In this document: positions 14,959 to 63,447 of the stretch, in pieces
Layout: each line of letters opens with the position of its first letter
Position numbering within the stretch: the first letter of the stretch is position 1
Sequence record: OM135583.1
Origin: Escherichia phage EP01
Strand: one strand, 5' to 3'
DNA: 64,000 nucleotides
Notes under the pieces: model-generated
What the model saw: only the letters and a program-made list of their open reading frames with translations
What the model was told of the DNA's origin: nothing
Database searches by the model: none
Made by a program: the position numbers and the translations under genes

Positions 14959-16298
<1,340 letters not shown>

Positions 16299-16402: not shown

Positions 16403-16603
16403 ATGGTACAAAAATTAATGGCACTTGTTAATGCCATCAAAGGTAATAAAAAACGTATAGCTTTTACTATTTCTGCTATGATAGGAATTTTACTTTGGAA
16501 TTTTGTTTTATCGCCAGTTGCTATTGCTCATGGCGTTAGTATTCCAGTAATTACTCTTGATACATTCGTAGATTTAGCATTTGCTTTGGTTGGGTTAATT
16601 TAA
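16403..16603 (+). CDS. small hydrophobic membrane protein, 66 aa, opposite strand
   Basis: AAAGGAGG Shine-Dalgarno 7 nt before ATG; two hydrophobic segments; GATAAATA upstream. Confidence 0.4.
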   Translation: MVQKLMALVNAIKGNKKRIAFTISAMIGILLWNFVLSPVAIAHGVSIPVITLDTFVDLAFALVGLI

Positions 16604-17628
16604 ATCTTAGCATATTTAGATAGCCGCATTTTAGCCATCAACCCTTGGGCAATATTATTTTTCATATATTCCATAATTTGTTCAGGGGTTGCACCTTCCT
16701 TTCTAATCATATCATTGACATCTTTTGATTTCCAGGGAGATTTATCCCAAAACATAACCCTTTCTCCTGCATCAACTAATTTAGTCATTCGTTTAATAGT
16801 GTCAGGGTGACGAGGTTCATTATCTAAAACCCATACACGTCTATCTTTAAATGGAACAATTTCTAGGTCTAATTGACCACCCGTAATAGCTATACCATTT
16901 TCAATAAAAAGTGAATCTATAGGTCCTTCTAGAACATATACATCACCATCTTTAACCCGTTCGACTCCATAGATTTTTGTTGCCTCAGGATAAGCTTTGA
17001 TGGTGATATATTTTTGAGGAGCATCTTTCTTTAATGCACGTCCTTGAAAAGACTCAGCTTTTCCATTAGCATTATAAATTGGAATAACAAGACGAGGCTC
17101 GGGTATTTCCTTTTTATATGTTCCTGGTGCTATACTATTAACTAATTTAGGCCATTCGGTTGTAAACCAAAGATATTTCCATTTATCCTTTGGAATACAA
17201 CGAGCTTTTACGTATTTTATAATTGGATGGTCTTCCGTCAGTTTATCTAATCTAATGCATGACGGAAGAGATTTAATTATTTTCTTCTCGGGTTGTTTAG
17301 GAAGTTCTTTAGGTTTTTCTACTGGACGACTTTTACCTTTTTCTTTTCTTATTTCAAAGATATACTCACGATATAAATCAGGTTCAAACTCCTTTAAATA
17401 TATTCCGATTGGTGCATGATAGTTACAGTTATAGCAATGAATATTTCCTTCATTATTATCGCCATAATACCATCCACGAGCTTTATTTTGGTCGGTTTTT
17501 GAATCTCCACAAACAGGGCATCTAAACCGTAATTTAAAAGTTGAACTATTATTTACTTGTGTGAATTTAGGTAAATGAGCTAGCGCACGATATGCAAACT
17601 CATTATCAATCCAAGGTATTGATGACAT
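16600..17628 (-). CDS. 61: DNA primase, 342 aa
   Basis: Zinc-ribbon CPVCGDS...C..C N-terminus; size and synteny. Confidence 0.93.
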   Translation of the reverse strand: MSSIPWIDNEFAYRALAHLPKFTQVNNSSTFKLRFRCPVCGDSKTDQNKARGWYYGDNNEGNIHCYNCNYHAPIGIYLKEFEPDLYREYIFEIRKEKGKSRPVEKPKELPKQPEKKIIKSLPSCIRLDKLTEDHPIIKYVKARCIPKDKWKYLWFTTEWPKLVNSIAPGTYKKEIPEPRLVIPIYNANGKAESFQGRALKKDAPQKYITIKAYPEATKIYGVERVKDGDVYVLEGPIDSLFIENGIAITGGQLDLEIVPFKDRRVWVLDNEPRHPDTIKRMTKLVDAGERVMFWDKSPWKSKDVNDMIRKEGATPEQIMEYMKNNIAQGLMAKMRLSKYAKI

Positions 17629-17631
17629 TTT

Positions 17632-17796
17632 TTACTCTTCTTTTTCTTTAGATTCCTCTTTTTTCTTTTTAGGAATCTGTTCAGGACCTTTATTTACTAC
17701 AGCGCCTGACGTTGTTCCAGTAGAGATATTTTCAGGATTACCACCTGAATCTCCAGCTACCATATCTTCTTTAATAAATTCTTTAAACGTTTTCAT
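17632..17796 (-). CDS. small protein with internal-protein-like N-terminus (MKTFKEFIKE), 54 aa
   Basis: Hand-translated ORF below track cutoff. Confidence 0.45.
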   Translation of the reverse strand: MKTFKEFIKEDMVAGDSGGNPENISTGTTSGAVVNKGPEQIPKKKKEESKEKEE

Positions 17797-17808
17797 ATTA
17801 GCCTCTAA

Positions 17809-18102
17809 TTACTCACCTACCACTTCAGCGATGATATTTTTATTATTGAAGTTTTTATCACAATACAGAACGTAATTATACTGCATTACACCACCAGACT
17901 TAAGCTGTTTTTGTACTTCAGCTTTCATTTCAGGGCGATCACGCTCAACGATATTCATAATATCTGCTTCAATCTGAGTTTCAACCTCAGTCTGATCTGC
18001 AGTCATAGACCATTCGCACAAATCTTTATCATAACCCGCCATAGCAGGCTGAGCAGCACAAGAAGCCAAAGCAAAAATTGCAGCAAAAACAAATTTTTTC
18101 AT
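17809..18102 (-). CDS. sp: spackle periplasmic protein, 97 aa
   Basis: Signal peptide, 97 aa, synteny downstream of gene 61. Confidence 0.8.
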   Translation of the reverse strand: MKKFVFAAIFALASCAAQPAMAGYDKDLCEWSMTADQTEVETQIEADIMNIVERDRPEMKAEVQKQLKSGGVMQYNYVLYCDKNFNNKNIIAEVVGE

Positions 18103-18128: not shown

Positions 18129-18160
18129 ATATAGTATCTCAATTTCCAACAAAAGTAAAC
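18129..18160 (-). promoter_or_regulatory. early promoter upstream of sp
   Basis: Plus strand tatatagtatc...gtaaac. Confidence 0.55.
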
Positions 18161-18414
18161 TATTTTATTTCCTCAAGTTCGTTAATCAATAAAAGTTCTC
18201 TGACGCTAAAAACAAAGAAAAATGTGTTCCCATCAACCAGAGCATGACCGCTAATAGAACACCCTCTGCGGAATTTAGAAACTTCACAATCTAGAACTGT
18301 AAAGGGTTTTAATCCTATGACTTTAGCTGTGCGTCTATTCAGTTCACAACCACTTGCGAATTTTTCCAAATCTTCTTCTGATTTAAACTGATATTCTCTA
18401 TTAACTAGCATCAT
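18160..18414 (-). CDS. hypothetical protein, 84 aa
   Basis: ORF track; early promoter upstream. Confidence 0.5.
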   Translation of the reverse strand: MMLVNREYQFKSEEDLEKFASGCELNRRTAKVIGLKPFTVLDCEVSKFRRGCSISGHALVDGNTFFFVFSVRELLLINELEEIK

Positions 18415-18498
18415 TTTCTTTTCTCCGCGATTAGCTGATAGAATTACTATAACACAACTCTATCAGCTTGTAAACTACTATTTTACTAGCATCAATAA

Positions 18499-18720
18499 CT
18501 ATTTCTCTAACTTGACGATTTTACGAAAGTATCTTTTGCATTGACGAATCTGTCGCTTCGTAGGGCGCACAGCAAACTTAATAAATTCCACTCGACCAAA
18601 TGGAGGGCTTTCTTCTGCTGGAATATCTAACACCAATTCCCACGTATCTGCAACAAGTGCTTTGAATTGAGTATTTTTCCTGACATTATATGGAGTAGGT
18701 TTAAATAAAACAATGTGCAT
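18499..18720 (-). CDS. hypothetical basic protein, 73 aa (start trimmed)
   Basis: Internal ATG with GAGGA SD immediately after the dmd stop. Confidence 0.45.
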   Translation of the reverse strand: MHIVLFKPTPYNVRKNTQFKALVADTWELVLDIPAEESPPFGRVEFIKFAVRPTKRQIRQCKRYFRKIVKLEK

Positions 18721-18721
18721 A

Positions 18722-18904
18722 TTATCCTCGGCAATCCACTTCGCATACTTTCTTGTCATCAATGAAAGCTTTAACTAGTGCTTTATTAACTTCTGCGTAT
18801 TGAGTAGTAGCCCATTGAACGTCATCTTTCATCATTGTGATTTCTTTAGTAAACATGCTTTCATTCTTAAACCACCCCATAAAAACTACCTTTACCAATT
18901 CCAT
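18722..18904 (-). CDS. dmd: Dmd antitoxin-like protein, 60 aa
   Basis: 60-aa ORF directly downstream of gene 41, as in T4. Confidence 0.65.
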   Translation of the reverse strand: MELVKVVFMGWFKNESMFTKEITMMKDDVQWATTQYAEVNKALVKAFIDDKKVCEVDCRG

Positions 18905-62524: not shown

Positions 62525-63103
62525 TTAATTACCACGGGCTGCATTAGCAACGGCATAAGCGTACTGAACATTAGCGTCCTTAAACGTACCTTTAGAGGTA
62601 TCTATTTCTGCCTTAAAGCCGCCTTTAGCCATAACATCGGCAAATTCTTTACGGAAAGCCATTGCATCAAGACCTTTCCATGATGATTTGTGCTTGGCGA
62701 ATTCAAGACCAGCGTAGTTGACAGCCTTAGCTAATTTATTATCAATGACCCATTTACCGGCTTTAGGCACAAACTTCGGACCTTTTTGTTTAGAGAACAG
62801 TTTTAAATTCCAGCGACGAAGATCACTGTCGGCTTTAACAAAAGCTGCGTCTAAGTTACTAGCAACAACATCTTCAATATGAGCAAATTTAAGTCCGTCA
62901 ACTTCAATATTTAGATCGTTACGCCAGCGAAGTCCTTCCCAAGCGAAAGCTTTAAAGTCAGAAGCTTTTGTGGCTAGATATCGTTCAAGTGGAGCAGTTT
63001 TAGGGTCAAAGCCGTTTCCGCCACGATAAGTCCACTCATCTTTATTAATGCCTTTGGCCTTTACTACAGAAGCTTCAGCAATAAATTCTTGATACGTTTT
63101 CAT
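62525..63103 (-). CDS. ipIII: internal protein III-like, 192 aa, with capsid targeting sequence
   Basis: N-terminal MKTYQEFIAE targeting/protease-site motif; basic protein. Confidence 0.75.
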   Translation of the reverse strand: MKTYQEFIAEASVVKAKGINKDEWTYRGGNGFDPKTAPLERYLATKASDFKAFAWEGLRWRNDLNIEVDGLKFAHIEDVVASNLDAAFVKADSDLRRWNLKLFSKQKGPKFVPKAGKWVIDNKLAKAVNYAGLEFAKHKSSWKGLDAMAFRKEFADVMAKGGFKAEIDTSKGTFKDANVQYAYAVANAARGN

Positions 63104-63129: not shown

Positions 63130-63447
63130 TTATTCTTTAGGGAAGTTTTTAGAGTATGCGTCATAAAGTTTATTACCGATGCGTCGGAAAACTCTAGCTG
63201 CAAAACGGTTTTCAGGGTTTTTAATCATGATTTGCATCATGTAAGTTCCTGCATCCGAAAGAGCTTCTTCATAGTACCCATTAATTTCTTTAAGAGTCCT
63301 ACGTTTACCACCAGGACCATCAACAGTAATTTTCCATTTACCTGTAGAAGTGCGACTTGGCGGCTCAACTTGTTCAATCCAGATATAACCGCCTTCTACA
63401 CGTTGTCCTTGGGCAGATTCTGCAATAAATTCTTTAAACGTTTTCAT
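63130..63447 (-). CDS. ipII: internal protein II-like, 105 aa, with capsid targeting sequence
   Basis: N-terminal MKTFKEFIAE; basic; adjacent to ipIII and e. Confidence 0.7.
   Translation of the reverse strand: MKTFKEFIAESAQGQRVEGGYIWIEQVEPPSRTSTGKWKITVDGPGGKRRTLKEINGYYEEALSDAGTYMMQIMIKNPENRFAARVFRRIGNKLYDAYSKNFPKE

Follow-up and report, generated by a model that had tools for sequence, protein, structure and literature searches.

Gene 61.1 of T4-like phages: a small predicted protein with an internal-protein-type leader and a gp23-like core

The DNA analysed here (the window) is a 64,000-nucleotide stretch of Escherichia phage EP01 (accession OM135583.1). It is T4-like (Tequatrovirus), and its closest relatives are 99% identical to it across the region of interest. 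As the initial annotation had noted, a small open reading frame (ORF) lies between gene 61 and sp; it has an ATG start, 54 codons and a TAA stop, and its product is MKTFKEFIKEDMVAGDSGGNPENISTGTTSGAVVNKGPEQIPKKKKEESKEKEE. The features of this locus, together with the two internal protein (IP) genes to which it is compared below, are as follows:

16600..17628, minus strand: gene 61 (DNA primase), the downstream neighbour, whose ATG lies 3 nt past the 61.1 stop
17632..17796, minus strand: gene 61.1, the T4 61.1 ortholog (ORF list, PHROG 1823 match, T4 annotation, core dN/dS)
17635..17682, minus strand: 61.1 tail, codons 39-54, EQIPKKKKEESKEKEE, variable, Lys-rich and charged (alignments)
17683..17766, minus strand: 61.1 core, codons 11-38, DMVAGDSGGNPENISTGTTSGAVVNKGP, paralogue of the gp23* N-terminus, residues 66-93 with the 25-residue N-fist (BLASTP, shuffles, PDB profile, hhalign)
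17767..17796, minus strand: 61.1 leader, codons 1-10, MKTFKEFIKE, like a capsid targeting sequence (CTS) (ipII-like match, CTS positions, invariant E10)
17802..17805, minus strand: Shine-Dalgarno sequence GAGG, 5 nt 5' of the 61.1 ATG (read from the sequence)
17809..18102, minus strand: sp (spackle), the upstream neighbour, whose stop lies 12 nt before the 61.1 ATG
18446..18474, minus strand: sigma-70/T4-early-like promoter, TTTACA-17-TATAGT with TG (consensus match only)
62525..63103, minus strand: ipIII-like internal protein gene (192 aa), leader MKTYQEFIAE, the canonical CTS
63130..63447, minus strand: ipII-like internal protein gene (105 aa), leader MKTFKEFIAE, the closest leader paralogue

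The small ORF had been taken to be unannotated, but it is T4 gene 61.1 (NC_000866 18966..19130; NP_049649.1; UniProt P39228, "Uncharacterized 5.9 kDa protein"), which is annotated in most of the close relatives. One residue separates its product here from T4 gp61.1, and the phrog_1823 profile covers the protein fully (residues 1-54 on profile positions 1-54 of 54, E 6.8e-34). A literature search on gp61.1 returned table entries only and no paper dedicated to the gene. Gene 61.1 is a real, strongly conserved small-protein gene of the T4-like phages that is catalogued but uncharacterised.

Gene 61.1 lies directly upstream of the primase gene and on the same strand, and the order 61.1-61 recurs in T4, W143, P8, JS98, SEA1, AM101, the KVP40-like phages and one further genome (L018); in Lw1 a small ORF separates the two genes. 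The adjacency of 61.1 and the primase gene holds across the Straboviridae. Comparison of the 61-sp interval with T4 and its relatives, proposed earlier as a check, finds 61.1 conserved there; the junction of sp and 61.1 here (17797-17808) lacks adfA (61.2), a gene that T4 and many relatives carry at this place. adfA (anti-DarT factor A) is 627 bp long, and in the relatives that carry it the match to this region breaks into two pieces, with a span of about 1,315 bp versus 701 bp. T4 61.1 is surrounded not by head genes but by genes of early replication and of anti-defence (dmd, tifA, adfA); a published proposal has it that the dmd-tifA-adfA region is an anti-toxin island, and its authors regard the other genes of the region as attractive candidates.

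Several other small ORFs lie near these genes. A 186-aa ORF (15738-16298, minus strand) stops at the very position at which the dam methylase gene (14959..15738) starts. Its Pfam match to the DpnII restriction endonuclease (PF04556, E 0.005) is weak and falls short of the threshold, with 16.6 bits where 23 are required; since DpnII and Dam both act on GATC, the ORF may encode a degenerate or divergent partner of Dam. In T4 no gene is annotated in the matching dam-61 gap. A hydrophobic 66-aa ORF (16403-16603, plus strand), whose 3' end overlaps the gene 61 stop, is on the strand opposite to all of its neighbours; it is called hypothetical in phages W143 and P8, has no Pfam match, and probably encodes a membrane protein. 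Upstream of sp lies an 84-aa ORF (18160-18414, minus strand) that has no Pfam match and that some related records name goF or "mRNA metabolism modulator", and an 87-aa ORF (18499-18762, minus strand) matches DUF7279 (E 4e-20); the W143 counterpart of the latter is annotated as the T4 10.2-kDa sp-gp41 intergenic protein (61.4/tifA). An early-type promoter match, TTTACA-17-TATAGT, precedes each of these two ORFs.

The initial annotation drew attention to the near-match between the first ten residues of the 61.1 product and the N-termini of the IP-like proteins, and this likeness is well borne out. When the first ten residues of the 209 window ORFs of at least 45 aa were compared all-against-all, the best three of the 21,736 pairs (9, 8 and 7 of 10 residues identical) were those among 61.1, the ipII-like gene and the ipIII-like gene, and all other pairs had 6 or fewer. 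The 61.1 leader is identical to that of the ipII-like protein at 9/10 residues and to that of the ipIII-like protein at 7/10, and the first 30 coding nucleotides are 28/30 and 25/30 identical, respectively; with the ipII-like gene (63424-63447) there are 24 consecutive identical nucleotides from the ATG (17773-17796 in 61.1), ATGAAAACGTTTAAAGAATTTATT. On the other hand, the 30 nt before the ATG are just 7-11/30 identical between 61.1 and the IP-like genes, so the likeness is confined to codons 1-10. Because it starts at the ATG and not upstream, a shared ribosome binding site or translation-initiation cassette, which had been offered as the alternative explanation, is ruled out. The ipII-like leader has F4-K5, as does 61.1, and not the Y4-Q5 of the ipIII-like leader, which hints at recombination between the 61.1 and ipII-like leaders. 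There is also a weak match between the 61.1 leader and PHROG 5341, "internal virion protein".

In T4 the mutagenesis of Mullaney and Black, as reviewed by Kuhn and Thomas, indicates that residues 4 and 7 are the main determinants of targeting by the CTS and residues 8 and 10 those of processing, and the protease gp21 is known to cleave after Glu in I/LxE motifs. By this measure the 61.1 leader qualifies as a CTS, since it has appropriate residues at all four positions (F4, F7, I8 and E10). Its targeting pair F4/F7 is also that of the ipII-like protein of the window, where IPIII has Y4/F7, and residues 8 and 10 give it a predicted gp21 site, I8-K9-E10, with the scissile bond between codon 10 (17767..17769) and codon 11. 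This IKE|D is the sole I/LxE motif in the protein. The leaders of the short form of 61.1 (see below) in several genera, MKT[FY]KEFIKE, MKTFKDFINE, MKSFKEVMNE, MKTYKEFVKLNE, MLTYNEFIRLKE and MKSFKDFIKE, all keep an aromatic residue at position 4, an acidic one at 6, hydrophobic ones at 7 and 8, I, L or M at P3 and Glu at P1. The JS98 leader, MKSFKEVMNE, has V7 and M8, unlike the three IP-like genes of the same phage (MKTY.EFI.E), and the fit of the 61.1 leaders to the CTS pattern is looser than that of the true IPs. The earlier suggestion that the leader is a capsid targeting sequence therefore stands in part: the four residues, and the homology of the sequence that follows the putative site (below), agree with it, and the departure of JS98 at positions 7 and 8 does not.

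What is new here, and more informative than the resemblance to the IP leaders, is that the core of gp61.1 is like gp23, with the cleavage sites in register. Residues 2-38 of 61.1 align without gaps with residues 57-93 of T4 gp23 (46% identity over 37 aa, BLASTP E 4e-9), and E10|D11 of 61.1 falls exactly on E65|A66 of gp23, the known gp21 bond; the 61.1 core and gp23 have in common the motif GD.G.N..NI..G.TSGAV...GP. In 2,000 shuffles of 61.1 the maximum score was 56, against 83 observed (z = 11.8). A profile of the 61.1 family, run against 177,635 distinct PDB sequences, matched gp23 chains only (E 6e-5), hhalign gave probabilities of 92% and 96% for 61.1 versus gp23, and among the products of the head module (gp20, 67, 68, 21, 22, 23, 24 and Inh) gp23 was the sole match. 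Kinship with gp67, gp68, gp22, gp21, gp24 and Inh was considered and dropped, as no significant similarity to 61.1 was found in any of them. The core is the most conserved part of the 61.1 family; the tail has a KK(R)K patch that is conserved in the alignments, beyond which the sequence varies, and the net charge is not kept across genera. By these comparisons gp61.1 is made up of an IP-type leader, a 28-residue gp23-paralogous core and a Lys-rich tail.

The homology covers the maturation junction of gp23 and its N-fist, and it ends there: gp61.1 has 54 residues, no Pfam match even at E 10, and no likeness to gp23 outside residues 57-93, and AlphaFold gives the short-form protein no stable fold (pTM 0.20). 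Having no HK97-fold body, it is not a capsid protein. The similarity explains why some records and UniRef label it "major capsid domain-containing protein", a label that overstates the relationship. In T4, JS98, SEA1, AM101 and Lw1 we checked whether 61.1 co-varies with the gp23 of the same phage or undergoes gene conversion with it and saw neither, though this comparison has little power because the gp23 segment is nearly invariant (29-30/31 identical in four of the five genera, with Lw1, a Pseudotevenvirus, at 22-23/31 to the others). Among themselves the 61.1 cores are identical at 20-27/31 residues and to any gp23 at 12-18/31, a pattern which indicates that the paralogy is ancient and that gene conversion is not going on.

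The part of gp23 that has been copied is of some structural consequence. In the unexpanded head, residues 66-105 of gp23* are disordered, lie inside the shell and probably contact the scaffolding core; upon head expansion this region becomes the N-arm and the N-fist. The N-fist, 25 residues long and a feature of T4-type capsids, touches four subunits and has a part in forming the Soc sites. It is therefore conceivable that gp61.1 is an accessory of head assembly, whose N-fist-like peptide itself helps in capsid assembly or stabilisation, either by filling N-fist contact sites that have no donor beside the gp24 pentamers or the portal, or by competing with gp23 N-termini for the scaffold and so tuning assembly or the timing of maturation. 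The element copied, with its four-subunit contacts and its part in the Soc sites, and the conservation of the core at the family level are in keeping with such a role, as are reports that the gp23 mutations A66D, A94V and G97S in this region alter head length, that there are unassigned densities under gp24*, and the location of another head-assembly gene, 40, inside the replication cluster. However, capsid maps at 3.3-3.4 Å assign no such peptide; the reported gp24* density is helical, and the N-fist is not described as helical; its expression is early and low; and there is no co-variation with the resident gp23, an observation of little weight given the near-invariance of gp23. On balance we think such an accessory role improbable.

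By tblastn, 61.1 is present in 1,438 phage records, with hosts that include Escherichia, Klebsiella, Acinetobacter, Aeromonas, Vibrio and others. Among short-form homologs of several genera a 33-codon core has dN/dS of 0.02-0.2 with saturated synonymous sites, and so is under strong purifying selection. The family occurs in two forms. The short form is found in Tequatrovirus, Dhakavirus (JS98) and a few other lineages. The long form (PHROG 2086) is about 155 aa long, its C-terminal 45 or so residues correspond to the core, and it is carried by RB69-like phages (Mosigvirus), Gelderlandvirus, KP15-like phages, Pseudotevenvirus, Acinetobacter phages and KVP40-like phages. It too adjoins the primase gene, directly upstream in most cases, and several authors already call it 61.1. 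The junction Glu is invariant in both, as E10 in our short-form alignment (A1) and as E109 in a 46-sequence alignment of long forms (A2); the context in both is [L/I/M]xE|xMVAGD, with P3 always L, I or M. The long-form orthologs have no N-terminal CTS, although at least one phage of this kind, SEA1, carries IP genes whose leaders read MKTYE[ED]FINE. Residues 100-117 of the SEA1 long form (L040:1280-1744) show a weak, non-significant likeness to residues 15-32 of JS98 gp21 (50% over 18 aa, E 0.08). We regard the identity of the gene, its coding constraint, the leader match, the in-register paralogy with gp23 and the invariance of the junction as firmly established.

The N-terminal domain of the long form (about 105 residues) is predicted by AlphaFold to be helical, with moderate confidence, and the gp23-like part to be disordered. 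Neither short-form nor long-form 61.1 has any match in Pfam (E up to 10) or NCBIfam; with Foldseek the long-form model has no PDB match below E 6, and its BFVD matches are limited to members of the family and to larger phage proteins that are uncharacterised. When 1.8 billion representatives were searched with a profile, 1,834 cluster representatives proved to be related, most of which share the N-domain only and have other C-terminal parts. This N-domain family spans the T4 superfamily and includes the pelagiphage HTVC008M and Sinorhizobium phage phiM12; in HTVC008M, which infects Pelagibacter, the N-domain gene is about 3 kb from the primase gene. In three metagenomic contexts of N-domain relatives, all on short contigs, a DUF7207 gene lies immediately upstream.

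In the window, neither tblastn nor a six-frame HMM search found the long-form N-domain elsewhere, and the idea that the long form has been split into 61.2 (adfA) and 61.1 is ruled out by the lack of similarity between AdfA and the long form. As the N-domain is missing from the window and is not AdfA, the T-even 61.1 looks like a truncated derivative in which the N-domain has been replaced by a compact IP-type leader. This history has a plainer version, in which an IP gene merely gave a start codon to a truncated long-form gene, so that the leader would be a relic of recombination with no targeting role and the core would have a function outside the head. The short form is indeed the derived one, most genera having the form of about 155 aa at the same position; the 24-nt identity with the ipII-like gene is a tract of the type that supports T4 recombination; leader residues 7 and 8 drift in JS98; and the N-domain family is far wider than 61.1, with members that have unrelated C-terminal parts. 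Yet the leader pattern (aromatic 4, hydrophobic 7/8, Glu 10) is kept across the short-form genera despite saturated synonymous divergence, the junction Glu and the aliphatic P3 are invariant in the long forms as well, where there has been no IP recombination, and the homology of the core to gp23 ties it to the head regardless. A mere relic is in our opinion a doubtful explanation, and quite unlikely to be the right one.

The joining of an IP-type leader to a copy of the gp23 cleavage site suggests that gp61.1 is probably cut by the head protease. Our preferred, if tentative, reading is that gp61.1 is a gp21 substrate which in the T-even phages is targeted to the prohead and trimmed there to a 44-residue peptide. 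Gp61.1 would be made from the early sp-61.1-61 transcript and would persist until proheads are assembled; the leader, and perhaps the gp23-like core as well, would bring it into the scaffolding core, where gp21 would cut it after Glu10 as it cuts gp23 after Glu65. The predicted product begins at Asp11 (DMVAGDSGGNPENIS[T/I]GTTSGAVVNK) and would have 44 residues, a mass of 4.6 kDa and a pI of 5.0, in good agreement with the earlier estimate of a peptide of about 44 residues. The freed peptide, intrinsically disordered, could stay in the head and be injected, or it could occupy contact sites of the N-fist type. Cleavage, packaging and the role of the peptide are what we infer from the arrangement of the protein; this reading and the three other explanations considered here (head-assembly accessory, recombination relic and, below, cytoplasmic decoy) are not mutually exclusive.

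The expression of 61.1 bears on this reading. In a time-resolved T4 dataset its transcript belongs to the early class and the protein was not detected; in the same dataset the ipII and ipIII transcripts are also early and their proteins late, so early transcription alone does not exclude incorporation into heads. Early-type sigma-70 promoters precede dmd and the 84-aa ORF located before sp, and the second of them (18446..18474) could, judging by its match to the consensus, drive the 84-aa ORF, sp, 61.1 and 61. On the coding strand upstream of 61.1 there is, within the window, no late promoter (TATAAATA) nearer than about 40 kb, and no middle promoter was found in front of the gene. Gp61.1 is absent from the lists of T4 prohead core components in recent reviews, it is unmentioned in the main text and supplements of a paper on T4 head-protein mass spectrometry, and in the literature we found no report that places it in proheads or virions or describes its ejection with the DNA.

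Early expression and the location of the gene also fit a rather different function, in which early, disordered gp61.1 acts as a cytoplasmic decoy by mimicking the maturation junction and N-terminus of gp23. It might mop up stray activity of gp21, or engage a host factor that detects this part of gp23, and in so doing weaken a defence of the abortive-infection or protease-sensing kind; in that case the leader would count only as a part of the mimicked junction. CBASS CD-NTases are reported to sense gp21 activity through loops that contain I/LxE, and gp23 is reported to trigger Lit. The gene lies within the proposed anti-toxin island, where its neighbours are dmd, tifA (61.4) and adfA (61.2), its transcript is of the early class with an early-type promoter close by, and the statistics behind its mimicry of an established gp21 substrate are solid. 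But accessory anti-defence genes are usually patchy in distribution and fast-evolving, and the 61.1 core is near-universal in the Straboviridae and evolves under strong purifying selection; it has no homology to a known anti-defence protein (the comparison with AdfA was negative, and there is no Pfam or NCBIfam match); and a protein that goes undetected in infected cells is a poor fit with a stoichiometric decoy. The Gol element of gp23, the activator of Lit, presumably lies just downstream of the segment that 61.1 mimics, which speaks against Gol mimicry, and a Gol/Lit mimic is therefore kept only as a variant within this explanation. All told we consider a decoy unlikely, if worth bearing in mind.

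A bolder proposal, which we think very improbable, is that the whole 61.1 family is a copied capsid maturation junction that acts as a protease-coupled device, cut by gp21 simultaneously with gp23. Were this so, the long forms would release their conserved N-domain from the gp23-like tail and the T-even forms would release an N-fist-like peptide, and the device could buffer the gp21 activity that is sensed by host tripwires, CBASS CdnG among them, or deliver a capsid-derived peptide to the next host. A structural element of the capsid would then have been duplicated and re-used across the T4 superfamily as a soluble signalling or decoy module.

The T4 head is among the best-inventoried of virus particles, and its CTS is in use for engineered protein delivery. 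If gp61.1 is packaged as in our preferred reading, it adds a natural CTS-bearing component whose cargo copies the N-terminus of the capsid protein itself, and a near-universal, unstudied gene gains a testable role; if it is never packaged or cut, 61.1 stays an ordinary conserved hypothetical gene. The in-register junction offers a minimal natural gp21 substrate of about 40-54 residues for studies of specificity, which are timely in that gp21 activity has been reported as a CBASS trigger. As a natural experiment, the long and short forms bear on whether the 105-residue N-domain and the 10-residue leader can replace each other.

Gene 61.1 may be compared with several known systems. With the anti-defence genes dmd, tifA and adfA it shares a neighbouring position, small size and early expression, but it has no homology to them (AdfA was the one compared) and its conservation is both wider and tighter than is typical of counter-defence genes; in the comparisons with AdfA, Pfam and NCBIfam only its location fits such a function. 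The small products of the prohead core (gp67, gp68 and the internal peptides II and VII) and the long propeptides of the head proteins of SPN3US and phiKZ arise, as that of gp61.1 is predicted to, through a gp21-type protease that cuts after Glu; unlike them, gp61.1 has a cleavage that is predicted only, and its sequence is unrelated to those of gp67, gp68, gp22, gp21, gp24 and Inh. To gp23 itself it aligns over 37 residues free of gaps with the scissile bonds in register, but it lacks the HK97-fold body, and the two lineages, although each is conserved, are no more than 12-18/31 identical in any one phage. The long-form gp61.1 (PHROG 2086) has the same place beside the primase gene, the same core at its C-terminus and the same [L/I/M]xE|xMVAGD junction, and differs in its helical N-domain of about 105 aa, which is absent from this window. 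Compared with T4 IPI, IPII and IPIII, gp61.1 differs in several respects: the IPs are packaged, processed by gp21 and injected, and gp61.1 is likened to them by sequence only; their cargo is a folded basic protein, and that of gp61.1 a disordered 44-residue fragment related to gp23; their loci are next to gene e and not by the primase gene; and the 61.1 orthologs of most genera have the N-domain of about 105 aa in place of an N-terminal leader. On the other hand, 61.1 resembles the IP genes in its near-identical decapeptide, with the same positions 4, 7, 8 and 10 and a single I-x-E ending at residue 10, and in its overall plan, in which such a leader is followed by a cargo that is unrelated to the cargo of the other IPs.
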